32,000 nt of DNA from Synechococcus sp. A15-24 (GCF_014280195.1 NZ_CP047960.1:870001-902000); one strand, 5' to 3'; shown: positions 4,019 to 32,000, counted from the stretch's first letter. The notes: generated by a model not told the origin, from the sequence alone. Made by a program: numbers and translations.

Positions 4019-4068
4019 GGGATCCAGTGGGATCTCCTTAGAGTCTGGTGCTGTTCTGGGCGCTGGCG

Positions 4069-11257: not shown

Positions 11258-11290
11258 CGGATCTCCGATCTCACCAAAAGGATGGCCGCT

Positions 11291-12319: not shown

Positions 12320-12375
12320 GGTGCTCGGGACTGGACAACTGGGCGAAACTAGGCGCCGTAGCCCGCCTGGGGACG

Positions 12376-13335: not shown

Positions 13336-13825
13336 TGCTGCGTCGGCTCAGCTCCTGCACCAGATGATCGAGGGCAAGTTCCCGTTCAGGAACGCCGGCT
13401 GCAGGAATCCAGCCCATCCAGGGCAGACCATCCCGTCGGCGTTGCAGTCGGTTCCACTGTGATCCGATCTGGACCAGTCCGATGAGAGGCGCACCGAGTT
13501 GATGGCAGAGAGCGGCATAGGCCGCGGCTGCGCCAGCAACGCCACCTCCGGCCTCGCCCGCCACCATCAGCAGAATCGGTTGGCGCCAGTCGGCCAGGGC
13601 GTCAAGCCAGCAGCCCCCCTCCGGTCGTTGTCGCGCCGCATCTCCGCAGAAACGGATTAAGCCTTGCTGAGCCGATGGTCTCGACAGCGTTTGCTGCGGC
13701 GATTCGCCTTCGCTGATGTGGCTCAGCTCCAGTCCCCAGCGTTCTGCCAGGGCTGTGCAGGCCTCGCGCATCAACAGCTCCGGCAGGGGGCCTGCACCCA
13801 CCAACAGCGGAACACCTGTGGACAT
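13295..13825 (-). CDS. conserved hypothetical protein
   Basis: ORF with host-like codon bias. Start preferred at ATG 13825 (MSTGVPLLVGAGP...). No motif I can name. Confidence 0.5.
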   Translation of the reverse strand: MSTGVPLLVGAGPLPELLMREACTALAERWGLELSHISEGESPQQTLSRPSAQQGLIRFCGDAARQRPEGGCWLDALADWRQPILLMVAGEAGGGVAGAAAAYAALCHQLGAPLIGLVQIGSQWNRLQRRRDGLPWMGWIPAAGVPERELALDHLVQELSRRSITAAATGAGAHRP

Positions 13826-17836: not shown

Positions 17837-18757
17837 ATGGCGCGTCCTGCGCTTTCGGTCAAGGGTCTGGCGGTCGCCCTGGGCATTGTCTCGGGTTGTT
17901 CAGTCTCGGCGCAGGCGGCCCAGCCAAGCGTTGTGGCTGTGGATGGAACCCTGTGTGACATCACCCGAACGGTGGTGGGAGCGGCGGCGAAGGTCACCTG
18001 CCTGATCCCGCCGGGTGGTGATCCCCACGGCTATCGCCTCAAGCCCAGCGACCGGAAGGCCATCGCAACGTCGGCAGCAGTGGTTCACATCGGCTTTGGT
18101 CTCACCCCTGCAGCCGATGAGATCACCAGTCCTGGGTCTGTCGTGGCCGTTGGCGAACAGGCATTGCCGAATTACACGGGAAGCGACCCCCATGTCTGGC
18201 ATGACCCGGCCAACTCGGCCGCCATGGTGTCGGCACTGAGCTCTGCTCTGATTCCTGTCCTGCCCGCATCGGAAACAGAAGGTTTTAAAGAACGCGCGAC
18301 GGTAGCCATTGCTGTGTTTAACGACCTCAGCCGTTGGGGAGCCATTCAGTTTGAAAAGCTGCCTCAACCGCAGCGGGTGATCGTCACCGATCACAAGACC
18401 TACAGCCACTTGGCCGATCGCTACGGGGTGGATGAAATTGCCATGCTTGATAGCTACACCACTGGGGGTGTGCTGCGTCCCTCCAGCCTGCGCAGGATCA
18501 GCAAGGAGATCAAAGCTTCAGGCGCAAAGGTGATTTTCACGCCGTCGATTCCTCCGAGCAAAACGCTGCGCAGGATCAGCAGATCAACCGGATTGCCAAT
18601 TGCGCCCACACCACTAGTTGGTGAGGGAACAGCTGCCGGAGAAACAGCGATCTCCACGGCGACGATCAACATCTGCACGATGGTGCAAGGGCAGGGCGGG
18701 ACCTGTGATAAGGCCTCTGCTGAGGCCCTGAATGATCGTTGGCAGGCCATTCGTTAA
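17837..18757 (+). CDS. znuA: metal ABC transporter substrate-binding lipoprotein (TroA/ZnuA cluster-9 family)
   Basis: Lipobox LGIVSGC, metal-ligand motifs GGDPHGY and SDPHVWHDP, and VTDHKTYSHL. Start taken at ATG 17837; the track start at 17768 would put the operator inside the CDS. Metal specificity (Zn vs Mn) is not proven. Confidence 0.8.
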   Translation: MARPALSVKGLAVALGIVSGCSVSAQAAQPSVVAVDGTLCDITRTVVGAAAKVTCLIPPGGDPHGYRLKPSDRKAIATSAAVVHIGFGLTPAADEITSPGSVVAVGEQALPNYTGSDPHVWHDPANSAAMVSALSSALIPVLPASETEGFKERATVAIAVFNDLSRWGAIQFEKLPQPQRVIVTDHKTYSHLADRYGVDEIAMLDSYTTGGVLRPSSLRRISKEIKASGAKVIFTPSIPPSKTLRRISRSTGLPIAPTPLVGEGTAAGETAISTATINICTMVQGQGGTCDKASAEALNDRWQAIR

Positions 18758-18769
18758 TGCCTGCTTGAC

Positions 18770-19912
18770 GTGCAGACGTCCAAGCATCCTCAATCTTTTC
18801 TCCTCTCCCTCAACATTTTCTCTCCCGTGTTCGTCTTCTCAACCAAGCCACGTCTCAGATTCCTGCTTTTAGCCCTGCTTCTGCTCCCTTGCACTGCAGC
18901 CCGGCCTGTCATGGCCCATGGATCCCATGGGGGAGGAGATGAGGAACTTGAGGCTGGTGAGTTTGATTTCACTCCTCTGATTACCATCGAAGGGCATGGT
19001 GGGTTTGAAACCAACTTGGATGATAACCCCAAGCATTACGCCATTGATGGATTGTTTGGTGGCGTGTTCCAGTGGGGCTTGGGCAACGGCGGAAGTCTCA
19101 CGATTGAAGCCGCTGTGGGACCTTCAGTGGTGTGGGGTGAGGCTGAACATTTTTACGGGAAGGTGCATGTTGATGATGATCATGGCCATAGGGATGAGGA
19201 CCATCACGACCACGACGAGCATGCTGATAATGACCACGACGAGCATGCTGAGGATGATCATCACGACCACGACGAGCATGCTGATAATGACCACGACGAG
19301 CATGCTGAGGATGATCATCATGAGCACGCAGAGCATGCCCACGATGAACACGGGCATGGTGATCCTGAGCTGAAACGAACGGACGTTCGTGGTTTCCTTA
19401 GTGTGCGCTATGCACCCAATGATCGCCTCAGCCTCACGGTGGATTGGATGCCCTATTACGTCACCGAGGATCAAGGTGACGATATCCAGGGTTTAAAGAA
19501 TGAGTTAGGTGCTAAAGTGGTTTGGGCGCTTGGTGATGGTGACGTTGACTTCGCTTTGGGTGATGGTCTTGAGAGCATTCTCGAGGGCATTTTCCTCTCC
19601 GTGATGCACCGTCAGGGTTGGGAATCCGATGGCACCTGGATGGGCAACTACACCGATCCCCGCCTGGGCGTTGGCTTCAACATTGACCAGATCAATGTCA
19701 TCATCGATGCCGGGCCTCGTTTCTACACACCTGGCAGCTATTCAGGTTTGAGTCAGCGGACTGACTTTGCCGGTGAAGTGGAAGTCTCTATCCCCGTTGG
19801 CGATGCCGTTCTGTTCGCCCATTGGAAGCCGACCTACAGCCCGGATGATGCTCCTGGCTGGGGTGAGGGATGGCAGCACCACCTCGGCACGGGGGTGACC
19901 TTCAGCTTCTGA
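18770..19912 (+). CDS. secreted His/Asp/Glu-rich protein, possible outer-membrane beta-barrel
   Basis: Signal peptide (RLRFLLLALLLLPCTAARPVMA; alternative GTG start at 18827). About 65 aa of HD/HE repeats (HGHRDEDHHDHDEHADNDHDEHAEDD...). Alternating-hydrophobic strands and a C-terminal ...GTGVTFSF ending in Phe. Confidence 0.75.
   Translation: MQTSKHPQSFLLSLNIFSPVFVFSTKPRLRFLLLALLLLPCTAARPVMAHGSHGGGDEELEAGEFDFTPLITIEGHGGFETNLDDNPKHYAIDGLFGGVFQWGLGNGGSLTIEAAVGPSVVWGEAEHFYGKVHVDDDHGHRDEDHHDHDEHADNDHDEHAEDDHHDHDEHADNDHDEHAEDDHHEHAEHAHDEHGHGDPELKRTDVRGFLSVRYAPNDRLSLTVDWMPYYVTEDQGDDIQGLKNELGAKVVWALGDGDVDFALGDGLESILEGIFLSVMHRQGWESDGTWMGNYTDPRLGVGFNIDQINVIIDAGPRFYTPGSYSGLSQRTDFAGEVEVSIPVGDAVLFAHWKPTYSPDDAPGWGEGWQHHLGTGVTFSF
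19202..19315 (+). repeat. perfect 57-bp x2 in-frame tandem duplication inside the His-rich gene
   Basis: 19202-19258 is identical to 19259-19315 (CATCACGACCACGACGAGCATGCTGATAATGACCACGACGAGCATGCTGAGGATGAT). The 20-nt core GACCACGACGAGCATGCTGA occurs 4 times (19208, 19232, 19265, 19289). Confidence 0.95.
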
Positions 19913-21235
19913 TCAGCCCGCCGGCAGCCAGCGGGCCTCCTTGATCGGTTCGTCCATCACTTCCCTCAATCGGAGAGTGTCGGCCTCAATCAGGGCGGCT
20001 CGCCCGCCCTTCAGATCGGGTTGGGTCAACGTCATCAACAGATCGTTGCCAACGGAGTTGTGCTCCACCCCTGTTCCTGGCCTCAGGGTCCAGGGGGCCA
20101 GATTTCGCCGTTGAAGGACTGTGCCTTCGCTGTTGAACTGCACCATTTCATGCTGGCTGCGTTGGCCCTGCCAGATCCCCAACACCGCCCAGATCCGATC
20201 GCCGGAGCCATTGCAGCTCACCGCCAGCACGGCCTGGTCTCCGAGGTGGAGTTGTCGCGGGGCCAGGCCAGGGATCACCAGTTCGATGGAGCGGCGGTAG
20301 TCCGGCCAATGGCGGATCAGCACCGCTCGGCCTGACGTGGCGCAGAAGGCCCCAAGCTCACGGCTGCCCGGCAGCACTTGGGGAGCCTTGCCGTTGTCCT
20401 TGAGCGGCTGGATGCTGATGCCGTCGTAGCCCGGCACCACCAGGCCGCCGCCGGCTGGCAGCAACTGCACCGGTCCGGAGGAGGGCAGCTCCAGCATCTG
20501 TCGCTCGCCATTGGCCAGCAGCAGCTCAAGGGTTTCACTGCCCGGTTTCAATCCGCCGGTCTGCACCAGCAGATCGCCATTGAGGTTGCTGCTGATGTGT
20601 CCAAACAGCAGATCGCCCTCACTCAGTGGTTCCAGAACGCCTTGGGCGGGTACTCCCAGCTGCTGTTTCGATAGGGCAATGTTGCGAGGGGTGAGCCGTT
20701 TGCGCCAGATCGTCTCCTTTCCATTGCCGTTACTGCTCACCATGGCGACACCGCTGCCGTTGCCGAGGGGAACCAGGCTCTGCAGTGAGGCCCAGACAGG
20801 GCTGAGGGGATGCCACTGGCCTTGCCGGTCCTGCAGCTGCAGCTGCTCACCGCCCTCCACATGCCGCGTCACCAGCAACCACGGGCGTGGATCCCACCAT
20901 CGCGTCTGAGGCGTCATCGGTTGCATGCGCTGGTCACGGCCCGCCATCGTCAGTGCGATGGGGGCATCGATGGGCGTTATCCCTCCGAGGATCAACCGCA
21001 GTCGGTTGCCTTGGCCTAGCCAGCGATGGGGTAGTGCAGGGTCAAGGCTGCTTTCCGCCGCCAGGTTGTTGCGGTGCATCGCGCGGCTGAAGCTCAGGTC
21101 CACCGCCGCTCGGCCAGACTGCAGCGGCTGTGGTTCGACGCCAAGCAGCCGCGGGGCCCGTCGCAGCAGCAGCTGTTGCTGGAGGACCACGGTCGCAGCA
21201 GCCAACAGCAGCAGCAGCGTCAGCCTGCGCGTCAT
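19913..21235 (-). CDS. secreted/anchored hypothetical protein (N-terminal Ig-like segment, then repeat/beta-rich region)
   Basis: N-terminal hydrophobic anchor LTLLLLLAAATVVL. 440 aa with host-like codon bias. Its start overlaps the upstream gene by 4 nt, so it is probably the last gene of the permease operon. Confidence 0.65.
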   Translation of the reverse strand: MTRRLTLLLLLAAATVVLQQQLLLRRAPRLLGVEPQPLQSGRAAVDLSFSRAMHRNNLAAESSLDPALPHRWLGQGNRLRLILGGITPIDAPIALTMAGRDQRMQPMTPQTRWWDPRPWLLVTRHVEGGEQLQLQDRQGQWHPLSPVWASLQSLVPLGNGSGVAMVSSNGNGKETIWRKRLTPRNIALSKQQLGVPAQGVLEPLSEGDLLFGHISSNLNGDLLVQTGGLKPGSETLELLLANGERQMLELPSSGPVQLLPAGGGLVVPGYDGISIQPLKDNGKAPQVLPGSRELGAFCATSGRAVLIRHWPDYRRSIELVIPGLAPRQLHLGDQAVLAVSCNGSGDRIWAVLGIWQGQRSQHEMVQFNSEGTVLQRRNLAPWTLRPGTGVEHNSVGNDLLMTLTQPDLKGGRAALIEADTLRLREVMDEPIKEARWLPAG

Positions 21236-21885
21236 GGCTCCAGCGGTCGCTCGGGGCGGGGGATGGGCTTGATCACAGTCGGCACCACCACAGCGGTGGG
21301 TTCACCATTGCGCGGGGCGACCGTCATCCGGCCCTGAATCGCCAACCACTGGTTGGCTTTTGGTTCGGCATCTGCTGGCCAGGCCACCGCCAGTCCAGCT
21401 GGGGTGGCATCGGCCAGGCAACAGCGCACGGTGAGCCTGGCGATCAACGGCGGCCCCTCGGGTTGCCGCCACACGAAGCCGCTGATGTTGACGGGATTTC
21501 CGTCCACCAGCTGCGGGTCGGGCTGGCTGCGCAGCAGTCGCACCCATTCCGTGAGGCTGCGCTGCTCCGGCGGCAACACGAAGGCGAGCTCTGCTGGCTC
21601 CGGCAGACCCTGGGGGCGGTTGCTCGCCAGATCACTGAAGGAGGGGTTCGGGGGGATCAGCAACACCAGACAACCGAGTACTGCGCTGATCAGCCATGGC
21701 CAGCGCGTGGCCTCGCGGCGGCGGCGATGTCGGATCACCAGCAGGAGTCCTGCTGCGAGCAAAACGGCTCCAGAGGCACCGACCAGGCTGTGAAACACCC
21801 CACGCAGCAACAGATCCAGGTGGCCGCTCAGCACGCTCCAGATCACCATCCATCCCCACAGGATCAGCAGCAATCCGCGACTCAT
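21232..21885 (-). CDS. TIGR03943/DUF1980-family membrane protein (partner subunit of COG0701 permeases)
   Basis: N-terminal TM helices plus a C-terminal domain with the VRCCLADA (CCxxDA) motif. Located 13 nt downstream of a COG0701 permease, the usual pairing. Confidence 0.7.
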   Translation of the reverse strand: MSRGLLLILWGWMVIWSVLSGHLDLLLRGVFHSLVGASGAVLLAAGLLLVIRHRRRREATRWPWLISAVLGCLVLLIPPNPSFSDLASNRPQGLPEPAELAFVLPPEQRSLTEWVRLLRSQPDPQLVDGNPVNISGFVWRQPEGPPLIARLTVRCCLADATPAGLAVAWPADAEPKANQWLAIQGRMTVAPRNGEPTAVVVPTVIKPIPRPERPLEP

Positions 21886-21898
21886 GCCATCCCCCGGA

Positions 21899-22855
21899 TC
21901 ACAGCTGCCACAGGTTGACCCATTGGCCGATCAACAGCACCCCCAGGCTGGCTGCGGCGGCGGTGATCGCGATGGCGCGGGGCCGCATCAGCACGGTGAA
22001 CAATCCCGCCAATTTGAGGTCAACAACTGGTCCAAGCAACAGGAAGGCCAGTAGTGCCCCCGGCGTTACCTGCGCCGCGAAACCGAGGGCAAGGAAGGCA
22101 TCCACGCTCGAGCACACCGACACCACCACCGCCAGCAGCATCAACGCCAGGATTGATCCTGTCGGTGCCCCGCCGATCGCCAGCAGCCAGCTGCGCGGCA
22201 ACCAGGTCTGCACGGTGGCGGCGATGACGCAGCCGAGCACCAACAGAGCCAGCAGATCCAGGAATTCGCGACTGCTTTGATCCAGCACATCCCGCAGTAA
22301 TGGGCGCTGCGGCCGTTGGCCCGTGCTGGCTGGCAGCGGTGCGCCGATCAACCCGCTGCCCCGTTGCAGCAGGTCGAGTTTGCGCAGCGGTTGACTGAGG
22401 CGCCGTTCGCTCAACAACGCCGTTTCCAGCAGCTGTGCTTCAGGCAGTTGTGCCAGGAGCAAGCTCAGCAGGATGGCCAGAAGGAAAGCCCCCAGGGGTC
22501 TGGCGATCAGCAGCCAGGGTTGATCGGGAAAGGCCGCCCAGGTGCTCGCCAGCACGATTGGATTCAGCACCGGTGCTGCAAACAGGAATCCAAAGCCGGT
22601 GCCTAAGGGTGCGCCACTGGCGAGCAGGCGGCGGGCGACCGGCACATTGCCGCATTCACAGGCCGGCAGGGCGAACCCCATCAGTGCGCCGGTGATCGGG
22701 GCAAGCACTGGGTGACGGGGCAAGCGGCTGATCCAGGCCCCCTGGGGCACCAGCCAACGGGCCAGGCCTGCGATCACCACCCCCAGCAGCAGAAACGGAA
22801 TCGCCTCCAGGAGCAATCCTTGAAAGATCGCCCAGGCGGTGGCCACTCGTTCCAC
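21899..22855 (-). CDS. COG0701/DUF318 (ArsP-like) permease
   Basis: FQGLLLEAIPFLLLGVVIAG N-terminus and LPACECGNVPVARRL (CxC motif), with about 8 TM spans. Confidence 0.8.
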   Translation of the reverse strand: MERVATAWAIFQGLLLEAIPFLLLGVVIAGLARWLVPQGAWISRLPRHPVLAPITGALMGFALPACECGNVPVARRLLASGAPLGTGFGFLFAAPVLNPIVLASTWAAFPDQPWLLIARPLGAFLLAILLSLLLAQLPEAQLLETALLSERRLSQPLRKLDLLQRGSGLIGAPLPASTGQRPQRPLLRDVLDQSSREFLDLLALLVLGCVIAATVQTWLPRSWLLAIGGAPTGSILALMLLAVVVSVCSSVDAFLALGFAAQVTPGALLAFLLLGPVVDLKLAGLFTVLMRPRAIAITAAAASLGVLLIGQWVNLWQL

Positions 22856-22934
22856 GTTCTGGCAGTTGCACCAAAAGGGATTCTCACAGTTTTACCAGCC
22901 ATGGCGATAGCGGAGTGTGCGACGTTGAAGGCTG

Positions 22935-23234
22935 GTGCGGGAGCACGCGGTGGCGTTAGGGAGGGTGTTGTCAGGGCTGGTGTTGCTCTCGACCCTTGGG
23001 GCGGCTGCTCATGCCCAGACCCTCGACCAACGCTTTTTCCAGGTGCAGCTGCTGCTGGATCAGATCCAGCTGGCGGCATCGACAGGAGACGCCGCTGGGG
23101 TGTGCGCATTGTCCCGCCGCGCCAACGACCGCTTGCTCGACATTCTTCCGGCGCTGCAGCGGCAGCGCCCTGGGCTTGATCACGCGGCTCTCCAGGACCG
23201 GATTCTTCTGGGGTTCAGCCGCTGTGATCGGTAG
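22935..23234 (+). CDS. small secreted hypothetical protein
   Basis: 99-aa ORF with signal peptide LSGLVLLSTLGAAAHAQ and host-like codon bias. Confidence 0.45.
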   Translation: MREHAVALGRVLSGLVLLSTLGAAAHAQTLDQRFFQVQLLLDQIQLAASTGDAAGVCALSRRANDRLLDILPALQRQRPGLDHAALQDRILLGFSRCDR

Positions 23235-23293
23235 GTCCACTCATTGCTGAGCGTTGATCCGCGATCCAGGTTGTTGTCAGTGAATGCACAGCG

Positions 23294-23485
23294 ATGGGAT
23301 TGATCCAGACCCTTCAGAGCCGTCTGCTGCGCTATGAATCCACTGCGCTACGGGATCGACAGGCCCATTTCAGCGCTGCACGCAATCTGGCGCGGGCCCA
23401 GTTTCTTCTGGGGGAGGCTGAACTCAGTCAGCGGTTGTGGCAGGACGTCGCCGATCGGGGGCTGGATGTCGAGCGGATCGAATAG
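23294..23485 (+). CDS. small hypothetical protein
   Basis: 63-aa ORF with GC-rich third positions. No recognisable motif. Confidence 0.35.
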   Translation: MGLIQTLQSRLLRYESTALRDRQAHFSAARNLARAQFLLGEAELSQRLWQDVADRGLDVERIE

Positions 23486-23488
23486 CTG

Positions 23489-23599
23489 ATGTACGGCTGC
23501 TGGTTTCAGGACGATCCAGACGCCATGGCTGAGGCCGATGCGGCGTATCTGAGCCGGACTGCACCGCCCGAATCCCCCGGCATCTTCGAGCACTGTTAA
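23489..23599 (+). CDS. possible 36-aa micro-ORF, below the ORF-track cutoff
   Basis: ATG 3 nt after the upstream stop. Translation MYGCWFQDDPDAMAEADAAYLSRTAPPESPGIFEHC. Third positions are mostly G/C, as in host genes. Confidence 0.25.
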   Translation: MYGCWFQDDPDAMAEADAAYLSRTAPPESPGIFEHC

Positions 23600-23627
23600 T
23601 GGCTTTGCCGGTGGGTTTTGAGCTGCG

Positions 23628-24341
23628 GTGAACATCCTGCTGCTGCGTCCAGGGGACAACTGGCTTGATGCGAGCACGGTGCAGATCACTGATCACAGGG
23701 CTGATCACCTCCGTCAAGTGTTGCGATCAGCCGTGGGGGAGTCGATCCGGGTCGGCGTTGTGGGGGGTCAGCGGGGTGATGCACGGATCGAAGCGATCGA
23801 TGCCACCGGCGTGACCCTGAGGGTGGCCCTCGGCGAACCGCCCCCGCCACGGCACCGATTTGACATCGTGCTGGCTCTGCCGCGCCCGAAGATGCTGCGC
23901 CGGATCCTGCGCACCGTGGCGGAATACGGGGTCTGCAACCTCCACCTGATCAACACTGCCCGGGTGGAGAAGAGCTTCTGGCAAACCCCGCTTCTGTCGA
24001 CTGACAAGGTGGAGGAGGCCCTGATGGCAGGGATGGAACGAGCCCAAGACACCGTAGCGCCGGTGGTCCATCAGCACCGGTTGTTTCGCCCGTTTGTGGA
24101 GGATCAACTGTCGACGATCTGCGCCGGTCGCCCCTGCTGGCTGGCGGAGATGGGATCAGCCCTGGCCCTTTCAGCGACCCCCGCCGTACCGGCGGTGGTG
24201 ATGATCGGTCCGGAGGGGGGCTTTGTTCCCTTCGAATTGGAGTTGGCCAAGGTGGTGATCGCGCAGCCGGTGCATCTGGGCACTCGGGTGCTCAGCGTGG
24301 ATACGGCATTGACGGCCGCATTGGCGCTGGGTTGGGGATGA
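23628..24341 (+). CDS. rsmE: 16S rRNA (uracil1498-N3)-methyltransferase
   Basis: PUA-like N-terminus (HRADHLRQVLR), LALPRPKMLRRILRTVAEYGV, and the SPOUT knot IGPEGGF...E near the C-terminus. Confidence 0.8.
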   Translation: MNILLLRPGDNWLDASTVQITDHRADHLRQVLRSAVGESIRVGVVGGQRGDARIEAIDATGVTLRVALGEPPPPRHRFDIVLALPRPKMLRRILRTVAEYGVCNLHLINTARVEKSFWQTPLLSTDKVEEALMAGMERAQDTVAPVVHQHRLFRPFVEDQLSTICAGRPCWLAEMGSALALSATPAVPAVVMIGPEGGFVPFELELAKVVIAQPVHLGTRVLSVDTALTAALALGWG

Positions 24342-24685
24342 TGGATGGCAACGTCAACACTGCATCGATGGGTGAGATGAACGACCAGGCCGGACTGGAG
24401 GCATTGGTGGCAGATCTGGGCAGCGGCAATGTGATCGATGCCGAGCTGCTGGAGGGTTGTTCGGTGGAGGCCCATGAGCTGGATGAGATGGGACCTGAGG
24501 AGGCGGCCCAGGTCGCTGCCCACTGTTTTGCCACCTTGTTTGGCCACACCGTGGAGTCCGCACAAGGCAGCGAGGCCGATGCGGATGCAGGCCGCTGGGC
24601 CGGAACGCTGGACGGCTTTGGGTTTGTGATCCGCCGGGATGACCTGGGGGATTTGGTGTTGGACTTCAGCGGGCCGGCGTCCTGA
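24332..24685 (+). CDS. acidic hypothetical protein
   Basis: 117-aa ORF overlapping the rsmE stop. Host-like codon bias and no motif I can name. Confidence 0.45.
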   Translation: MGMMDGNVNTASMGEMNDQAGLEALVADLGSGNVIDAELLEGCSVEAHELDEMGPEEAAQVAAHCFATLFGHTVESAQGSEADADAGRWAGTLDGFGFVIRRDDLGDLVLDFSGPAS

Positions 24686-24947
24686 TCAGCAGCAAGAGTC
24701 CGGAGATGGTCACCACGACGGTGAGCCCCCCGAGGATCACCGAATAGATCGGCTGCAGGTTGATCGGCCCGAAGTCTCCGGTGTGGATCTTCAGCAGCCA
24801 AAAGGCATCGATGTCCTGCTCCAGCAGCAGGCTGTAAAGGGAACCGGTTCCAGCCGTCAGCAGCAGCGGTGCTGCAGCGATCGGCACCAGCCTGCGGTGC
24901 AGGCGTCGAGCCTGGCGCTGTTGATTGCGGTTGGGCTGCCTCGTCAT
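24666..24947 (-). CDS. small two-TM membrane protein
   Basis: 93-aa ORF with a basic N-terminus and two hydrophobic spans. Overlaps the upstream gene by 4 nt. Confidence 0.5.
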   Translation of the reverse strand: MTRQPNRNQQRQARRLHRRLVPIAAAPLLLTAGTGSLYSLLLEQDIDAFWLLKIHTGDFGPINLQPIYSVILGGLTVVVTISGLLLLIRTPAR

Positions 24948-25153
24948 TGCTTGCGCATCTGCTGATGCAATTCCCTTTCATCGGAGCAGGGCATCCAACG
25001 ACCGTTGTTCTGGTGAACCGTGGAGCAACCGATCTCCACCGCGCGGCTCATGGCCTCGGCTTGGCTGTCGTACATCCCCTTGCGATGGGCCTGAGCCCAA
25101 CCGCTGTGGAGAAGGGATGTGCCAAGGAGTGCGAAGAGAGCGAAACGATGCAT
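24944..25153 (-). CDS. small secreted DUF3721-like protein
   Basis: Signal peptide MHRFALFALLGTSLLHSGWAQA, then GCSTVHQNNGRWMPC. This matches the GC..H....WMPC motif of DUF3721, common in marine picocyanobacteria and cyanophages (recalled from memory). Confidence 0.6.
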   Translation of the reverse strand: MHRFALFALLGTSLLHSGWAQAHRKGMYDSQAEAMSRAVEIGCSTVHQNNGRWMPCSDERELHQQMRKQ

Positions 25154-25169
25154 CGAACCGGACCCTGGA

Positions 25170-25427
25170 TCAACGGCCTTCGCAATGTTGAAAGGCCTTG
25201 AGCTCGTTCATTCTGCCGGGCCCCTGCTGGCTGCCGGGATTGATGGCATCACGCATCTGGATCTGCGCATCGACGCAACGGTTGAAGCGCTGATGTCTGA
25301 CCGCCTGAGGAATGAGCAGCATGGCCATGGTGAACAGGCTCAAGCTGCTGACGGCAGCCAGCACGGGGTAGGCGTGGGCTCGCACCATCTCCCGGGCGGA
25401 GAGGGTCTTGTCGTTGTGGTCGGTCAT
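25170..25427 (-). CDS. small membrane protein, unknown function
   Basis: Start preferred at ATG 25427 (MTDHNDKTLSAREMV...). One TM span (YPVLAAVSSLSLFTMAMLLI). Last host-like gene before the repeat-bounded region. Confidence 0.45.
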   Translation of the reverse strand: MTDHNDKTLSAREMVRAHAYPVLAAVSSLSLFTMAMLLIPQAVRHQRFNRCVDAQIQMRDAINPGSQQGPGRMNELKAFQHCEGR

Positions 25428-25462
25428 GACCTGGCACCTTGCTTGGTCATTCTGGAGTGATG

Positions 25463-25680
25463 TCGATGGAGCCTTGCGTGGCCGGTAGCTTGTGGAGCCG
25501 ATCCGAGCCCAGGGCCACACGCCACTTGGTGAGCCAATCCCGTTCTGCGAATCCAGCTGACCAGCGCTGGGGTTTCTGGCCGCTGCTGCCGCTCACTTTT
25601 TAGTTGTAGGAACCAGTCTGAGGTGCTTGTCCCTGAGTTGTCCCTCATTTTTTGTGCAACTGGGCTGGATTGTGGGCAAG
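25463..25680 (+). repeat. island junction repeat, copy A
   Basis: Shares a perfect 29-mer CAGCGCTGGGGTTTCTGGCCGCTGCTGCC (25562-25590 = 29814-29842) and 16-mer TTTTGTGCAACTGGGC (25650-25665 = 29902-29917) with copy C, plus weaker flanking similarity. Carries an extra insert of about 50 nt relative to C. Confidence 0.8.
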
Positions 25681-25745
25681 TGAGGGGTGTGTTTATTGGT
25701 TTGAGGGTTGGTTGCTGAAGCAGGTTTGTGTTTTGTGTTGTCAGA

Positions 25746-25928
25746 TCAGATGAGATCGGGCTGATAGTTGATGAGATCGTCGCGATTGATGTTGAGGAGC
25801 GTGGTTTTGATGTTTTGGTCTGAGTCTTTGAGCACGAGCAGGTCGGCGGCCAGGGCGGCAGCGGGCTGATGCACCCGGTAATGCTGATCACTGCTGCTAC
25901 CGAAGCTGCCGATCAAAACAATGCGCAT
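25746..25928 (-). pseudogene. truncated gene remnant (only about 60 codons, N-terminal MRIVLIGSFGSS...)
   Basis: The ORF looks like the N-terminus of a larger Rossmann or glycosyltransferase-like protein but stops after 60 aa, next to repeat copy A. Confidence 0.3.
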
Positions 25929-26109
25929 GGTGCTCAGCTACGGGTGGCGTTGATCACTGTTTGCAGTGGTGCAGGCCAGCCGGTTTCGATTGGGCTTGAG
26001 CCGTTGGACCTCTCGTTGGGCGTGTCTAATGACGGCGTCAACAGCCTCGATGTCGCAACCCAGCGCAAGGATGGTGCTGGCTTGAGTCGGGATGCGCTCA
26101 AGGGGGGGG

Positions 26110-26325
26110 CAGTGCGTGAAGGCACTTCTCGCGGCTCAAAGACACTCTGATGCCAATCAGCAGAAGCGCCTGCCCGCGATCCATTCCTCATCAGAATCAC
26201 TGCATCGACAGTGAGCGTTGTAGCTGGAGCAGGTTTGAATCCTGCCGATCAACGCTAATGATTCTCGGCGTTGCTTCTGATTAATAGTGTTCGCTAATAG
26301 ATAGCTTGAGATTCTTGTGCCTGAT
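26110..26325 (+). repeat. island junction repeat, copy B (most diverged)
   Basis: Perfect 17-mer CAGAATCACTGCATCGA (26192-26208 = 29756-29772). Alignable with copy C through GCTGGAGC.GGT.TGAATCCTGC..ATCA.CGCT and, with gaps, to about 26325. Confidence 0.7.
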
Positions 26326-26624
26326 GTGTTTCTGTTGTTCTGTGTGTCTGTTCAAATCATGATAAAGCTCGACAGGATGGCCTTCTATGAGTTTGCGACT
26401 CTCTTGAGCTGAAAAGGAAACTAAGGGTTGTACAGCAAAGTATGCTTTTCTTGGGCGCAAGTTGATATTTTGGATTCAAACAAATAATGCCTTTCAGCTT
26501 TTCCACTCTCTGTGAATCTTATAACAAATGCCAAGCACGGCTTTGCGGGCAGCCAGTGGCTTCGGCAAAAACAAGCATTACCAATACCGTTTCTTCTAGC
26601 TTTGTAAGGAGAAATGGCCAACAC

Positions 26625-27341
26625 ATGTCTTCAGGCTGGATATCGATGCCACGTGATCGGCAGCCTGAGGTCATGGACCAACCTGGTCTCGATCCTGCTG
26701 AGCATGTCCGAGCCCTTCAAGGTCTTCGACGGATTAATGCCATCAGTCGTTGTGTACCAGGCCTTTTGCGTTATTTAGAGAAGCTCGCTAGCGAAAGTCC
26801 CACGACTCAGTTGAGCGTGTTGGAGCTGGCTTGCGGAGGTGGTGATACGGCAATTGAGCTTGATGCGCTCGCTCGAAGACGTCACCTCAACATCTCGTTT
26901 CAAGCTTGTGACCTGAACCCTGAAGCTGTGCGGATCGCGCGCCGCAATGTTGCCAGATCAGAAAGTGGTGTTGGTGTGTTTGTTGAGGATGCTCTTGAAC
27001 CGTCTGGATCCAAGCAATTTGATGTGGTGTATTGCACACTTTTTGTTCACCATCTCGATCCACCCGATGTGGTGCGACTACTCAAAGGGATGGCAGCTAG
27101 GGCTCGTCGACTTGTGATTGTTGACGATCTGATTAGGAGCCGTCTTGGGTATTCCTTGGCTTGGATGGGTACGCGACTGCTGAGCCGATCTTGGGTGGTT
27201 CATCACGATGGACCTGTGTCAGTCAAGGGGGCTTACACCCCCACGGAGATTTTGGATCTCGCCTCTCGAGCCGGTTTGCGTGACTGTGTTCTGGAACGGA
27301 GCTGGCCAGAGCGCTACCGGCTCTGCTGGACACCCCACTGA
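26625..27341 (+). CDS. class I SAM-dependent methyltransferase
   Basis: Motif I VLELACGGGD, acidic loop ACDLNPEAV, and post-I/II motifs (FDVVYCTLFVHHL). Start preferred at ATG 26625 (MSSGWISMPRD...). Stop TGA 27339-27341 lies 1 nt before the next ATG. Confidence 0.85.
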   Translation: MSSGWISMPRDRQPEVMDQPGLDPAEHVRALQGLRRINAISRCVPGLLRYLEKLASESPTTQLSVLELACGGGDTAIELDALARRRHLNISFQACDLNPEAVRIARRNVARSESGVGVFVEDALEPSGSKQFDVVYCTLFVHHLDPPDVVRLLKGMAARARRLVIVDDLIRSRLGYSLAWMGTRLLSRSWVVHHDGPVSVKGAYTPTEILDLASRAGLRDCVLERSWPERYRLCWTPH

Positions 27342-27342
27342 C

Positions 27343-28488
27343 ATGCGAAGCAATTGGGATGTCATCGTGATTGGGGCAGGAGTTGCCGGAGGCTTGGCAG
27401 CCTTCGATTGTGCAAATCGCGGCCTGCGAGTTCTGGTGGTTGAGAAACGGTCCTTCCCCCGCTGGAAGGTGTGTGGTTGCTGCTTTAACGCCAATTCTCT
27501 GGCATCACTGAGTGCCACAGGCCTCCCGAACCTCATGCACGATCAAGGTGCTGTGCCTCTCGATCAACTTCGTCTTGGTTGGGGTGGTAAGTCGCTCAAG
27601 CTTGGTTTGCCAGGCGGTTTGGCTTTGTCAAGGGAGCGCTTTGATCAGGCTTTGGTCAACGCCGCTGAGGGTGCTGGCGCAACATTGCGCTTTCGAACCA
27701 GTGCCGTGCTTGAGGAGATGACTCCTGAAGGTCGAATGGTGCGGTTACGTCCTCCCAGTGGTGCTCCAGTGGAACGTATCAGTGGCCGTGTCGTACTGGT
27801 CGCAGCCGGCTTAGAGCACCAGGTGATTTCTCCATCTCATGCGGCCAGTTCCAAAAGCACCCCGGAATCGAGGCTTGGTGCGGGTTGCCTCATCGCCGAT
27901 GACGACGGAACTTACGAGTCTGGGACCATTCATATGGCCATTGGCCAGCATGGCTACGTCGGCTTGGTTCGCCGTGAAGATGGTGCTCTGAACTTGGCTG
28001 CTGCTTTCGACCGCGCTGTGGTCAAGTCTTCCGGCGGTGTGGCGCGTGCGGCACAACTTGTTCTGACTCAAGCCGGCTTCGCCTTGCCTCGATCTTTGGA
28101 GTCGTCTCGCTGGCAATTAACCCCCGCACTGACCCGTCGTGCCGGTGCGTTTGCAGGGCATCGCTTTTTGTTGCTCGGCGATGCGACAGGTTACGTGGAG
28201 CCTTTTACCGGTGAGGGAATGGCCTGGGCTCTTGCTGCGGGTGCGTCGGTTGCTCCCTTTGTTGAGGAAGCTCAGGGGGAATGGACAGTGGATCTGGAGC
28301 GGCGTTGGCGAAGAAGGCTGGTGGATCTGACGATCAGTCGTCAGCGCGTGTGCAGTGTGTTGTCGACTGTGTTGAGACAACCGCTCACCACAACCGCATT
28401 GTTCAGCCTCGGGTCTCAATGGCCTGCTGTACCGCAACGCATTATCAGCAGCCTCAATCGCGTGCATCCCCTAATGGCGAGGTCTTAA
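27343..28488 (+). CDS. FAD-dependent oxidoreductase, geranylgeranyl-reductase/flavin-monooxygenase fold
   Basis: DVIVIGAGVAGGLAAFDCANRGLRVLVVEK (GxGxxG + E), FPRWKVCG, and LLLGDATGYVEPFTGEGMAWAL (GD motif). Start at ATG 27343 rather than the track start at 27208. Confidence 0.85.
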   Translation: MRSNWDVIVIGAGVAGGLAAFDCANRGLRVLVVEKRSFPRWKVCGCCFNANSLASLSATGLPNLMHDQGAVPLDQLRLGWGGKSLKLGLPGGLALSRERFDQALVNAAEGAGATLRFRTSAVLEEMTPEGRMVRLRPPSGAPVERISGRVVLVAAGLEHQVISPSHAASSKSTPESRLGAGCLIADDDGTYESGTIHMAIGQHGYVGLVRREDGALNLAAAFDRAVVKSSGGVARAAQLVLTQAGFALPRSLESSRWQLTPALTRRAGAFAGHRFLLLGDATGYVEPFTGEGMAWALAAGASVAPFVEEAQGEWTVDLERRWRRRLVDLTISRQRVCSVLSTVLRQPLTTTALFSLGSQWPAVPQRIISSLNRVHPLMARS

Positions 28489-28491
28489 TCC

Positions 28492-29586
28492 ATGCCTCTC
28501 ATCCTTCACGGAATGGGTACGGCAGTACCAACTCAGCGATTGAGCCAGGCAGAAGCGGTGCAAGTGGCGCATCGCATCAATGCAGAAAGTCCTGAGCATT
28601 CAAGGCTGATGTCGCGCATCTATCAGAAAACCAAGGTTCTCACCCGTGGAAGTGTGCTCCTCGAGAATGATGGTCTCAATGGCACGAGCACGACCAAGGA
28701 TCGTCTCAGTTTCTACGGCTCAGAAAGCCCTGGGACGGCACGACGGATGCATGCTTATAACACTCACGCCGGTGGGTTGTCTCTTGAGGCTGCTACGAAG
28801 GCGCTATCTGATGGTGATATCTCATCAGGGGCGATCACCCACCTCATCACGGTCAGTTGTACTGGGTTTCATTCACCTGGTATTGACCTTTTCTTGATTG
28901 AAAAGCTTGATCTATCGCCGAGTGTTCAGAGGACACACATCGGATTCATGGGATGCCACGCTGCGCTGAATGGCTTGCGTGTTGCCCATGCCTTCGCGGA
29001 AATGGATCCAAAGGCGGTTGTTTTGGTTTGTGCTGTTGAGCTTTGTAGCCTCCATATGGCTTATGGCTGGCACCCAGAGAAGGTCGTTGCCAATGCTTTG
29101 TTTGCTGATGGGGCGGCTGCTGTTGTCGCCTCCTCGGATCCTTCCCTTTCTGATCAATCCTTGGTCTTGCGCCGCAGTGGCTCAACAGTGATTCCTGATA
29201 GTGCAGATCTGATGCAATGGGAGATTGGCGACCATGGTTTTGCGATGGGGTTGTCTCCCCTTGTTCCGGAAACGGTTGGTGCTGCCTTGTTGCCTTGGTT
29301 GCGAGATTGGCTCAAGGATCAGTCGATTGATCTTGAGGCGGTGACGAGCTGGGCTGTGCATCCTGGCGGACCCAGAATTCTCTCCACCTGTGCAGAGGTT
29401 TTGTCGTTGGACCCAGGCCTACTGCACGAATCCAGAGGCATACTTCAGGATCACGGCAACATGTCATCCGCAACGATCCTGTTCATTCTTGATCGATTGC
29501 GTCGGCGGTCAACTACTGGTCCTTGTCTTGCACTGGCCTTTGGCCCTGGGCTGAGTGCTGAGGTTGCACTTTTTGATTTTGAATAA
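28492..29586 (+). CDS. type III polyketide synthase (chalcone/stilbene synthase superfamily)
   Basis: Cys-His-Asn triad contexts are all present: ITVSCTGFHSPG, WAVHPGGPRIL, DHGNMSSATILFIL. Also C-terminal AFGPGL. ATG lies 3 nt after the upstream stop. Confidence 0.92.
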   Translation: MPLILHGMGTAVPTQRLSQAEAVQVAHRINAESPEHSRLMSRIYQKTKVLTRGSVLLENDGLNGTSTTKDRLSFYGSESPGTARRMHAYNTHAGGLSLEAATKALSDGDISSGAITHLITVSCTGFHSPGIDLFLIEKLDLSPSVQRTHIGFMGCHAALNGLRVAHAFAEMDPKAVVLVCAVELCSLHMAYGWHPEKVVANALFADGAAAVVASSDPSLSDQSLVLRRSGSTVIPDSADLMQWEIGDHGFAMGLSPLVPETVGAALLPWLRDWLKDQSIDLEAVTSWAVHPGGPRILSTCAEVLSLDPGLLHESRGILQDHGNMSSATILFILDRLRRRSTTGPCLALAFGPGLSAEVALFDFE

Positions 29587-29702
29587 CAGTCAATATTCGT
29601 TTTGCCTGTTTCACTGCCTGGGGAATTATCATCGCATCTGTACATATCTCTGATCGGATGATGTTGCTCGGCGATGTCACACTTGGGTGTCCCCAGAGGC
29701 GT

Positions 29703-29933
29703 CAGTGGCGTGAATCTTTTCAGTGATTTTGCTCTGCCTTGCCCCTTTCCTTCGACAGAATCACTGCATCGATGGGGAGTGTGGTGGCTGGAGCTGGTGT
29801 GAATCCTGCTCATCAGCGCTGGGGTTTCTGGCCGCTGCTGCCACTCGGTTTCATGTTGCAAGAATAGGTCGAAGCTGCTTGTCCTTGAGTCGTCTCTGGA
29901 ATTTTGTGCAACTGGGCAGGATGGGGTGCAACG
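29703..29933 (+). repeat. island junction repeat, copy C (contains both the A-like and B-like parts)
   Basis: See copies A and B. Copy C is the only one that matches both of the others along its full length. Confidence 0.8.
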
Positions 29934-30028
29934 ACAACCATCTCCTTACCTGAAAAATTCCTCCGGATTGAAAACGTGAATCTCGGGAAGCAGCAGAGTT
30001 TCTTGCATGGACTGAGAAGGAAGCCGCG

Positions 30029-30463
30029 TTAAAGCATTTCAGGACGCAATCTGCTGGGCCGATAAGAGATCAGGAAGGCCTGTTGGCCGGCAGCCTCTGA
30101 TTTCACGGCAGTGATCAGGTCTTCACCGGTGTTCCAGACCCAGACCTGGTCGTTATGGCTGTCGTGGTCGAGGCTGGTGCTTAGCGGTGGCCCATGTTGA
30201 GCGCGCAGGCCTGCAAGCACCTCTGTCATGTCATCAATGGCGAACTCGTAAGCCAGCTTCGTCAGCCCTTGTTCTGGGTCGACTTCAAACGTGGCCTGTG
30301 AAACGGGGAGTCGATCCAGAAACACATCTCTCTTGATGTAGCAACCGTCCTGCTCTTCGTTCAGGGCTTGGCCTTGACCCAGATGGATCGCCACTTGCTC
30401 GAACGGCATGCCCCATGCCAGCCCTTCGACGCAGGCGTCCACCCTGCCAGCGCTGCAGAACAA
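30029..30463 (-). CDS. hypothetical protein (orphan cargo)
   Basis: 144-aa ORF from a TTG start; an internal ATG gives MPFEQVAIHLG... No motif I can name. Sits alone between repeat copy C and the motif array. Confidence 0.45.
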   Translation of the reverse strand: MFCSAGRVDACVEGLAWGMPFEQVAIHLGQGQALNEEQDGCYIKRDVFLDRLPVSQATFEVDPEQGLTKLAYEFAIDDMTEVLAGLRAQHGPPLSTSLDHDSHNDQVWVWNTGEDLITAVKSEAAGQQAFLISYRPSRLRPEML

Positions 30464-30725
30464 AAGCAGCCCTACTTACGCCGTGATCAGAAGGTTCTGG
30501 AGTTGGTGCAGCACCTTCATGCGGCGATCAATCACTGTTCAGATTTTGTTGGTTCGTAGGGCCGTTGCCTACTGCCTTTTGAGGACAAGCCCCTTAACAA
30601 GTTCAATGTTGTGACGCCGCAGTTTGAGCAGTCTTGAAGCCCTTTAGCCCAGTTGAGGCTCGCCAGGCATCTAGGTGCACCTAAGCGAGGGTCTTCCTGG
30701 TCAGTTTCCCTATACCCCCCGCCAG

Positions 30726-30943
30726 TTGTCCCAGGGTGGGGTTTTTGAGTGCCTGACTGGGATTTACCCTGGGACAACCCATTTTTTTCAGAGGAGTTGT
30801 CCCAGGGTAGATGGGTACACCTATCTGTCTCAGAAGCGCCTGGGACATTTTCCGTCAATTCAGCCGATTGTCCCAGGGTTGTCCCAGGGTTGTCCCAGGC
30901 CTACTTCCCTTGCAACGACTGGATTTAACCCTACCTGGGACAA
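30726..30943. repeat. array of 8 copies of the 11-bp motif TTGTCCCAGGG in both orientations (iteron/operator-like)
   Basis: Forward copies at 30726, 30797, 30868, 30879 and 30890 (the last is 10/11). Reverse copies (CCCTGGGACAA) at 30767, 30838 (9/11) and 30933 (10/11). A partial copy, TTGTCCCGG, is at 31003. Three copies are head-to-tail with an 11-bp period (30868-30900). Confidence 0.9.
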
Positions 30944-31078
30944 AAATAATTCTCTGTCTCCCCGCGAGGCAGTCACGGCCCAATAAACCAAATTTCCGAG
31001 CCTTGTCCCGGTCGGTTCGGAATCGATCAAACCCTTCGCCTTAAGCCGCTGGAGCGATTTCCTGACCGCCGCGTCCAC
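30860..31078 (-). pseudogene. possible truncated winged-helix DNA-binding ORF whose 3' end runs into the motif array
   Basis: GTG-initiated 72 codons, VDAAVRKSLQRLKAKGLIDSEPTG..., resembling the recognition helix and wing of MarR/Rep-type wHTH. The frame is open for about 115 nt upstream with no start codon, suggesting a 5'-truncated remnant. The last 13 codons are encoded by the triple 11-bp repeat. Confidence 0.3.
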
Positions 31079-31377
31079 TTTCGGCCTACGGTTAGTGACT
31101 CCACCTCCTCGCGCCTCAGAGGCCCTTCTGCACGCAATAGAGCCCGCTCCTCTTGTGCGCTTCGATGTTTTGCAGATGTTGACCCGAGGGTTTAGCGCTG
31201 TTCAACATCTTTGGATCCCTGCAGGTGGCTTTCTGTTTGTTTAATAATTGATCTTGTTATGATGATTGCATCGATTTTTTGCATTGCTTGTGCTTCGAGT
31301 TGAGGTTGATGTTTAACTAATGTTGATTACCTCTTCCCTTGAAGCTTATTTGATACGGCCTTAACTGTAGAAAGCAA

Positions 31378-31749
31378 ATGACCTCACCTGTGATTGACGA
31401 TTTTTGTGTGGAAGATCTAAATGATGGGATCTATTCACTTAAGACTACCGAAATGTCTTCTGCTTGCTCAGTTGATAATGTGTCTGAGCTCGAGGAACTG
31501 GTGAGTCGAGAGTATAAGAATATTTGTTCTACATTGTGTTTAGATGACGATGGCGATCGACTCTTGCTGAAAGCTAAATGCTTAGCGCATGTTCAATTGC
31601 TTGGAGCTTTTTTTCATAATTACCAAAAATATTTATACAAGTCTTATGATCACGAGATGGCAAAGCATTTGTATGCTGATTGGTCTCGTCTAGGTATAGC
31701 ATTTAACGTAATTGCAAATGTTCAGAATTCCAGGTTGGGTGATGGTTGA
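31378..31749 (+). CDS. hypothetical protein in an AT-rich cassette
   Basis: 123-aa ORF with AT-rich codon usage unlike the host. No recognisable motif. Confidence 0.5.
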   Translation: MTSPVIDDFCVEDLNDGIYSLKTTEMSSACSVDNVSELEELVSREYKNICSTLCLDDDGDRLLLKAKCLAHVQLLGAFFHNYQKYLYKSYDHEMAKHLYADWSRLGIAFNVIANVQNSRLGDG

Positions 31750-31948
31750 GCCTACATTGTTTAGTATGTATGTATAAATGTTGGAATTACTCGATGACCG
31801 CTTTTGTTATGACATGATCAGCAGCAACGCTGGTCTGTTTCTCCCGGTACGGAGTGGCACAGGCTTAAGAATTTCTTTGCGTGGGGTTTCGTTTTTTGCC
31901 TCTTTGCGCTTTCAGTAGTTGCTAATAATATTCAGCTCTAGCAATTCA

Positions 31949-32000
31949 ATGGCATCGACGTCTAAATCATGGATGCGTACCCGTGAACTTGCTGAATATC
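31949..32000 (+). CDS. start of an ORF cut by the window end; possible excisionase/AlpA-type HTH
   Basis: ATGGCATCGACG... translates MASTSKSWMRTRELAEY. The TRELAEY segment resembles the first helix of MerR/excisionase-type HTH domains. Only 17 codons are visible. Confidence 0.2.
   Translation, partial: MASTSKSWMRTRELAEY

Follow-up and report, generated by a model that had tools for sequence, protein, structure and literature searches.

Synechococcus sp. A15-24 carries, in the 32,000-nt stretch of its genome analyzed here (GCF_014280195.1, NZ_CP047960.1:870001-902000; hereafter the window), a three-gene operon for a methyltransferase, a flavoprotein and a type III polyketide synthase (PKS). 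We consider it probable, at roughly 0.85, that this trio is an intact, functional-looking copy of the published picocyanobacterial gene cluster hidABC, and that it is swappable cargo in an island located at the head of the gene for a DUF4336 protein. Dozens of picocyanobacterial genomes are already known to carry hidABC, and the biosynthetic content is therefore not new; the only part that may be new is the insertion hotspot at the DUF4336 gene head. Positions are counted from the first nucleotide of the window, features are listed in Table 1, and related loci are designated by L numbers.

Identity of the operon

We identify the operon as hidABC because gene order, protein families and closest relatives agree. 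The order methyltransferase, flavin adenine dinucleotide (FAD)-dependent oxidoreductase, PKS holds for every Synechococcus locus and for about 50 of the 71 non-cyanobacterial loci. HidA matches the Pfam families Methyltransf_25 (E 5.6e-13), Methyltransf_11 and Methyltransf_12, scores 292 bits against the NCBIfam equivalog NF004851 (cut-off 243 bits), and shares 71-95% identity with its counterparts, which lead the trio in other Synechococcus loci. HidC matches Chal_sti_synt_N and Chal_sti_synt_C with 93.6 and 75.6 bits, respectively (Pfam gathering cut-off 27), and its residues Cys155, His290 and Asn323 align with the catalytic triad Cys175, His313 and Asn346 of PKS18 from M. tuberculosis (1ted, E 8e-48). 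The initial annotation, made from the DNA alone, had proposed an S-adenosylmethionine (SAM)-binding protein, an FAD Rossmann-fold protein and a PKS with a complete Cys-His-Asn triad. The profile and BLAST searches that it had recommended returned these same families, namely a methyltransferase, a geranylgeranyl reductase (GGR)-like FAD protein and a type III PKS, and the alignment to PKS18 showed that the triad had been assigned correctly.

Relatives of HidC number in the thousands in marine metagenomes, with identities of up to 99%, although no database record has exactly this protein. The best matches in the genome collection were SAG AG-670-B23 (93%), MIT S1220 (85%) and MIT S9503 (73%), and after the marine Synechococcus sequences (73-99%) the next matches were Planctomycetota, Acidobacteriota and others at 45-55%. 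The active-site strings MGCHAAL, FAD, FAMGL and HPGGP are identical to those of strains WH8102 and WH8103, and identity to the PKS of UW179A, a member of the published hid-like set, is 75%. By identity and motif strings, HidC belongs to the picocyanobacterial HidC clade. Many JGI records of such type III PKSs (for example P0001, P0054 and P0100) carry the name "prepilin-type processing-associated H-X9-DG protein", which looks like a systematic mis-annotation.

The hierridin gene cluster hidABC of Cyanobium sp. LEGE 06113 was reportedly described by Costa et al. in 2019 (J Nat Prod 82:393). It consists of the SAM-dependent methyltransferase HidA, the FAD-dependent oxidoreductase HidB and the type III PKS HidC, an alkylresorcinol synthase; it was first linked to hierridins B and C in that strain, and recombinant HidA was found to methylate 5-pentadecylresorcinol (Martins et al., 2019, PMC6836626; PMC8086630). 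Larsen et al. (2021) listed 47 hierridin-like clusters, mostly from Prochlorococcus and Synechococcus, and their supplementary alignment includes WH8102, WH8103, WH7803, WH7805, RS9917, CC9311, CC9902, BL107, UW179A and others (PMC8086630). Doré et al. treated hidABC as accessory gene cluster SynCAG_018, enriched in cold-water Synechococcus populations. The operon of the window resembles the Cyanobium and other picocyanobacterial clusters in gene order, protein families, host group and active-site strings, and differs from them in its setting at a DUF4336 gene head, which is absent from the hidABC papers (PMC6836626; PMC8086630). The initial annotation had predicted a methylated, hydroxylated alkylresorcinol-type product with the hierridin trio as an analogue. 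Shared gene order and clade are consistent with such a product; the likening to hierridin was right but understated, the trio being hidABC itself, as already documented in marine Synechococcus.

Two further systems invite comparison. The srsABC operon of Streptomyces griseus, reportedly described by Funabashi et al. in 2008 as an alkylresorcinol/alkylquinone operon, shares the logic of a PKS alkylresorcinol synthase combined with a methyltransferase and a ring-oxidizing flavoprotein, but this is a functional analogy only. In srsABC the PKS gene comes first, unlike in hidABC, and even the closest solved actinobacterial PKS is the distant PKS18 mentioned above. The operon of the Planctomycetota Gimesia maris and Rhodopirellula baltica has the same methyltransferase-oxidoreductase-PKS order, and its PKS homologues yielded C15/C17 alkylresorcinols when expressed in C. 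glutamicum (PMC10896814). It differs in that it belongs to another phylum, that the G. maris methyltransferase apparently C-methylates, and that the genomic contexts are not conserved. Identities to homologues of the planctomycete type are 45-55% for the PKS, 40-56% for the methyltransferase and 35-48% for the FAD protein.

Repeats derived from the DUF4336 gene

Three repeat copies, A, B and C, all oriented like the operon, lie in its vicinity, and the repeated element is the duplicated 5' end of the DUF4336 core gene. When a profile of five full copies was searched with nhmmer, 9 of 13 Synechococcus loci had co-oriented copies 5' of hidA. Unexpectedly, the 5' end of the DUF4336 gene (PF14234, 390 bits) matched as well; in L081 and L115 this gene opens the core DNA on the right-hand side of the island (profile sites at 13422-13523 and 11249-11354 of the respective contigs). 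When translated, the copies are pseudo-N-termini of the DUF4336 protein (…ADQRWxxWPLLPL…): the protein itself begins with MDLEPWDQGCAGGVDMVSRADQRWPWWPLLPLYPYG…, copy A reads MSMEPCVAGSLW…NPADQRWGFWPLLPLTF and copy C MGSVVAGAGVNPAHQRWGFWPLLPLGFMLQE. The repeat heads are about 190 nt long and 75-85% identical to one another, and a 15-mer taken from them has two occurrences in the window, where 0.12 would be expected by chance. The initial annotation had noticed the repeats and had placed the operon exactly between copies B and C. The copies are real and the operon does lie between them, starting 281 nt past B and ending 159 nt short of C, so that "exactly" was too strict a word; that the copies are duplicated gene heads had not been recognized.

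An alignment of the heads (alignment A5) revealed a common core of about 35 nt, GAYCAGCGCTGGGGTTTCTGGCCGCTGCTGCCRCT, to the right of which the sequences split at once into two classes. The gene class comprises the empty sites and the DUF4336 gene heads of L115 and L123, and the element class comprises copies A and C of the window, copy A of L115, and L182. On its left side, the core is preceded either by native, lineage-specific sequence, as in the empty sites and copy A of the window, or by sequence of a shared element type, which is seen in copy C and also in L115 and L123, where it heads the functional gene. In copy A (nhmmer match 25547-25679; 11/13 identities to the DUF4336 N-terminus by BLASTP) the switch of arms follows GCTGCTGCCRCT, and the 95% core identity to L115 extends to position 25684. 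Copy B travels with the operon, as the stretch with 90-93% nucleotide identity to L001 and L081 begins at 26178.

Other origins of the repeats were considered and rejected. A T-arm-like sequence in copy B, GGTTTGAATCC, had prompted the idea of tRNA-derived repeats, but it proved to be coding-derived, and ARAGORN detected no tRNA or transfer-messenger RNA (tmRNA) in the window or in loci L001-L009. A structured RNA is not indicated, as there was no Rfam match at the gathering threshold or at E<=10, and fold energies were no better than those of shuffled sequences. An integron attC array is likewise not indicated (no inverted repeats, fold z-scores of +1.0 and +0.3, no integrase found). A 16-mer of the repeat gave 33 matches in viral contigs, none of which extended past the seed, and a phage att site was discarded as a chance match. 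Homology of the right arm to the DUF4336 coding sequence past the core (about 47% identity when counted by eye in alignment A5) was not convincing, and we make no such claim.

A proposed insertion hotspot at the DUF4336 gene head

Marine metagenomes were scanned with the DUF4336 protein and 80 loci were mapped. Among these are empty sites, in which the gene head matches the repeat core only: L134, with the genes for 93-aa and DUF3721 proteins and a 116-aa protein, all on the minus strand, followed by DUF4336, and L154, with DUF3721 and DUF305 genes, both on the minus strand, followed by DUF4336. DUF4336 sites occupied by hid were found in L122, L123 and L132/133, while L145, L146, L175, L155, L182, L148 and L125 carry other cargo between the same junctions. 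This alternative cargo, which is repeat-bounded in each case (L155 2598-6729; L182 104-7309; L145 2328-8371; L148 5981-9518), includes a set of ptxD, phosphonate-binding protein, permease, PhyH and HD genes, PhoX, a chromate transporter, RimK and Nramp, as well as an S15 peptidase, Rieske oxygenases, an amine oxidase and a Mu-transposase-C-like open reading frame (ORF). The cargo at the site is typical niche-adaptive material. A single site, the DUF4336 head, is seen to collect several ecologically relevant gene sets.

The window shows the order left core, copy A, a 490-bp remnant, copy B, hidABC, copy C, the segment with a 144-aa gene, and further low-GC DNA. We infer a recombination mechanism in which insertions into the core DUF4336 gene, within its first ~30 codons, would enlarge the island. 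Each inserted segment would end with its own copy of the DUF4336 head and would thereby supply a replacement head, while the displaced older heads would persist as the co-oriented repeats A, B and C. The pattern looks like that expected for attB/attL/attR/attP-like sites after tandem site-specific insertions. We posit tentatively, and at slightly less than even odds, that the repeats mark an undescribed hotspot, a recombinase-less, integron-like cassette stack that is the protein-gene counterpart of the tycheposon islands and that would explain the movement of the hierridin operon. In the collection of papers searched, none linked DUF4336 to Synechococcus.

The tycheposon islands of Prochlorococcus and Synechococcus (Hackl et al., bioRxiv 2020.12.28.424599; Grébert et al., 2022, PMC8995045) are similar in that niche-adaptive cargo is stacked at one site and that direct repeats, which are partial copies of the target, remain after successive insertions. 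They differ in that the target here is the 5' coding end of DUF4336 and not a tRNA or tmRNA gene. In the window and about 96 sampled island ORFs, for which one scan listed its 25 commonest families, neither a tyrosine or serine recombinase nor any other hallmark gene was found. Membership in the tRNA-targeting islands was rejected, as no tRNA or tmRNA was found in the window or in L001-L009 and the repeats stem from the head of a protein gene.

Plain homologous recombination between the ~190-nt heads is a serious alternative, which we regard as possible though not probable. In this case the repeats would not be att sites of a dedicated recombinase but only substrates of homologous recombination, and cassettes would be gained, lost or swapped by RecA-dependent exchange between the heads or, once DNA has been taken up, by exchange with the core genes of the flanks. 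In length and similarity the repeats would suffice for such an exchange, and none of the sampled islands contained an integrase, although the gene for a site-specific recombinase could lie elsewhere or be carried by the vehicle of transfer. In L081 the neighbouring pair of 93-aa and DUF3721 genes is also duplicated, suggesting that larger flanks can be copied. What speaks for site-specific insertion instead is that the arms switch at one sharp point after the ~35-nt core in many independent loci, and that empty sites contain the core only while occupied sites have an element-type head fused to the gene, which is the classic footprint of site-specific integration. If the DUF4336 head were confirmed as a dedicated integration site, it would offer a way to study how genes move among marine Synechococcus and might also serve genetic engineering as a natural landing pad.

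The flavoprotein HidB and the proposed pathway

By homology to HidA, HidC and the planctomycete enzymes tested by others, HidC would load a long-chain fatty-acyl thioester, extend it with malonyl-CoA and close the resorcinol ring by aldol condensation, giving a 5-alkylresorcinol. HidA would then O-methylate phenol groups, and HidB is the proposed ring hydroxylase, so that a hierridin-B-type dimethoxy-alkylphenol would result. The hydroxylation step is a literature assignment made on biosynthetic logic.

HidB contains an FAD Rossmann domain, and its best family is the GG-red-SF family TIGR02032 (E 1.8e-29). Its score of 103.3 bits falls below the family cut-off of 158.8, and HidB is accordingly a relative of the geranylgeranyl reductase family, not a member. 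The score against Ubi-OHases (TIGR01988) is only 29.9 bits (cut-off 224.65), which sets HidB apart from the UbiH/UbiF/Coq6 type. The motifs FPRxKVCGxC, GYVGLV and GDxxGYxEPxTGEG are invariant in all 22 HidB homologues examined. A profile of these 22 sequences had its best PDB match in the Thermoplasma GGR 3oz2 (E 8e-24, nearly the whole length), followed by the variant-B halogenases Bmp2 and CmlS, to which the similarity lies mainly in the FAD-binding part; enzymes of the PHBH, UbiH and kynurenine-monooxygenase types matched far more weakly. The initial annotation had judged the flavoprotein to be GGR-like rather than UbiH-like, and these scores agree. Its further suggestion that the tailoring chemistry may therefore differ from that of srs does not follow: GGR-likeness does not decide the chemistry, because the aromatic hydroxylases QhpG, LodB and GoxB belong to the same superfamily and align to HidB over nearly its full length.

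It is unlikely, in our view, that the same enzymes serve another end product or role, be it a membrane alkyl-(hydro)quinone acting as electron carrier or envelope lipid, or a HidB that works as a reductase or halogenase. Alkylquinone precedents are known from the literature (the srs alkylquinones of S. griseus and mycobacterial polyketide quinones), hierridin C is chlorinated without a known halogenase, the G. maris methyltransferase apparently C-methylates, and the nearest solved relatives of HidB are a GGR and halogenases rather than PHBH- or UbiH-type enzymes. Flavin-dependent halogenases are recognized by the signatures WxWxIP and FxxPxxSxG. Both are missing from HidB, which bears the GGR-type motifs FPRxKVCG, GYVGLV and EPFTGEG, and the latter two occupy the equivalent positions in the 22 homologues; a halogenase assignment by motif was rejected. 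A hydroxylase role for HidB also agrees with the existence of alignable hydroxylases in its superfamily and with the structure of hierridin B, which requires exactly one hydroxylation and two O-methylations.

Exchange of the hid module between lineages

Comparison with related loci supports the view that Synechococcus lineages have exchanged the hid module, from copy B to copy C, independently of the core genes around it. It does so because the identities of module and core are discordant in both directions and because the third-position GC content (GC3) of the hid genes is low. In L115, the closest relative (an ENA metagenome contig), the core at 18045-25684 is 95.4% identical at the nucleotide level, but the hid module at 26178-29846 only 85.8% (blastn), and L123 shows the same pattern, with 96% identity for the RsmE protein and 85-88% for HidABC. 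L081 presents the reverse: its left flank is 71.7% identical, but the module at 26178-29916, from copy B through copy C, 93.4%, and the corresponding proteins reach 69.6% for RsmE and 94-96% for HidABC. Among the nine Synechococcus genome loci, the only shared DNA is the coding block at about 26624-29577 (70-90% identity), beyond which there are only scattered copies of the repeat. The 144-aa gene lies 3' of hid in the window but 5' of it in L081, while L148 and L182 have it beside DUF4336; these varying places indicate that segments have been shuffled. The context gives concrete evidence that the operon passes between lineages as a bounded module.

The initial annotation had called the operon horizontally mobile and had proposed that its presence or absence at this locus be compared among relatives. 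The metagenomes contained empty, hid-occupied and differently loaded sites, and mobility is supported by these, by composition and by the mismatch between module and core identity. That the operon is instead an immobile, ancestral neighbour of DUF4336, inherited vertically and repeatedly lost, with the repeats as local duplications that have no role in transfer, is very improbable: it is found directly 5' of DUF4336 in the divergent lineages L115, L119-121, L122, L123 and L132/133, and no recombinase was found in the window or the sampled islands, but the discordance runs both ways, the hid genes trail the adjacent core gene by 21-28 points in GC3, the same repeats enclose unrelated cargo at this site, the 144-aa gene has changed sides relative to hid between the window and L081, and the operon also occurs in other contexts.

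Several points weigh against our interpretation of the trio as hidABC cargo at the DUF4336 head. The link to the characterized HidABC of Cyanobium LEGE 06113 runs only through motif strings and the UW179A intermediate, and neither the length of the alkyl chain nor the final product can be read from sequence. The hydroxylase role assigned to HidB is a proposal, and co-expression of the G. maris homologues left the role of the flavoprotein open, giving only probable C-methylation (PMC10896814). MIT S1220 and L116 carry the operon in other neighbourhoods. The intact DUF4336 gene to the right of the island, just beyond base 32000, is predicted from the relatives; its initial ~107 nt should match positions 1-107 of the repeat, and DUF760, lepB, menD and menB should come after it. 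Finally, searches of the window and of about 96 ORFs sampled from related islands, with one scan listing its 25 commonest families, turned up a Mu-transposase-C-like ORF in L145 but no site-specific recombinase such as an integrase or resolvase.

Layout of the operon and its surroundings

Table 1. Position and nature of the features around the hid operon in the window.
Feature	Position	Strand	Description	Basis
Left core flank	23628..25520		rsmE (+), 117-aa ORF (+), 93-aa ORF (-), DUF3721 gene (-), 116-aa ORF (-)	Pfam
Copy A, attL-like	25460..25684	+	Truncated native DUF4336 start (MSMEPC…NPADQRWGFWPLLPLTF*), then element-type right arm	nhmmer, hmm 57-189, E 1e-34
Remnant between copies A and B	25685..26178		~490 bp; absent from closest relative L115	blastn
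Copy B	26179..26344	+	Diverged full copy, left end of hid module	nhmmer, hmm 1-166, E 3e-18
AT-rich stretch 5' of hidA	26345..26624	+	41.5% GC over 26276-26624; kept with the module in L001 and L081	
hidA homologue	26625..27341	+	Class I SAM-dependent methyltransferase, 238 aa	Pfam/NCBIfam
hidB homologue	27343..28488	+	FAD-dependent geranylgeranyl-reductase-like oxidoreductase, 381 aa	NCBIfam, profile-to-PDB
hidC homologue	28492..29586	+	Type III PKS, predicted alkylresorcinol synthase, 364 aa	Pfam, triad alignment
Copy C, full, attP-like	29745..29933	+	Element-type DUF4336 head (MGSVVAGAGVNPAHQRWGFWPLLPLGFMLQE*) and element-type right arm	nhmmer, hmm 3-191, E 2e-58
Further island cargo	29934..32000		GC 49%; includes 144-aa gene at 30029-30463 (-)	

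All three ORFs of the operon are intact. They share one strand, with spacers of 1 nt between the first and second gene and 3 nt between the second and third, as the initial annotation had stated, and such tiny spacers suggest a single transcript with coupled translation. The reading frame of hidA opens upstream, at 26487, and the ATG at 26625 was taken as the start according to homologues and the NCBIfam model. The GC content of the operon is 55.3% (hidA 54.3%, hidB 57.9%, hidC 53.1%) against 63.4% in the core at 1-25400; the initial estimate of around 50% was too low, while the contrast to the core was seen correctly. GC3 is 48% in hidA, 55% in hidB and 51% in hidC, compared with 76% in the adjacent rsmE. 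The AT-rich stretch 5' of hidA is a presumed promoter region, in which no match to the sigma-70 consensus was found on the plus strand. A terminator-like hairpin with a T-run overlaps the final codons of hidC (29553-29581); terminator-like sites in the region are no more frequent than by chance (4 observed, 5.1 expected).

The gene order of the left flank is the same in L115, L123 and L081. The remnant between copies A and B contains small ORFs without a Pfam match and has no similar DNA in any of the compared loci, and the cargo to the right of copy C gave no Pfam matches. L081 has two copies of the pair of minus-strand genes at 24666-25153, for a 93-aa PepSY_TM-like ORF and a DUF3721 protein, one to either side of its island (3771-4363 and 12057-12538), which shows that duplication of the gene head can take in genes of the flank as well. 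A block of three genes, for an ORF of about 234 aa, a Metallophos phosphoesterase and an ORF of about 260 aa, repeatedly adjoins hidABC, on either side, in various Synechococcus lineages (L081 4371-6687; L005 1417-3697; L119 5094-7430; L116 12685-14890). It is absent from the window and may be a co-travelling module.

Further upstream, at 18770-19912 on the plus strand, a 380-aa ORF directly follows znuA. It contains a tandem His/Asp-rich coding repeat (HDHDEHA-like, 19172-19342) with periodicities of 24 and 9 nt, and it matches weakly to a cyanophage outer-membrane beta-barrel domain. Local GC content dips to 54%. The ORF may encode a metal-binding protein of the znuABC region.

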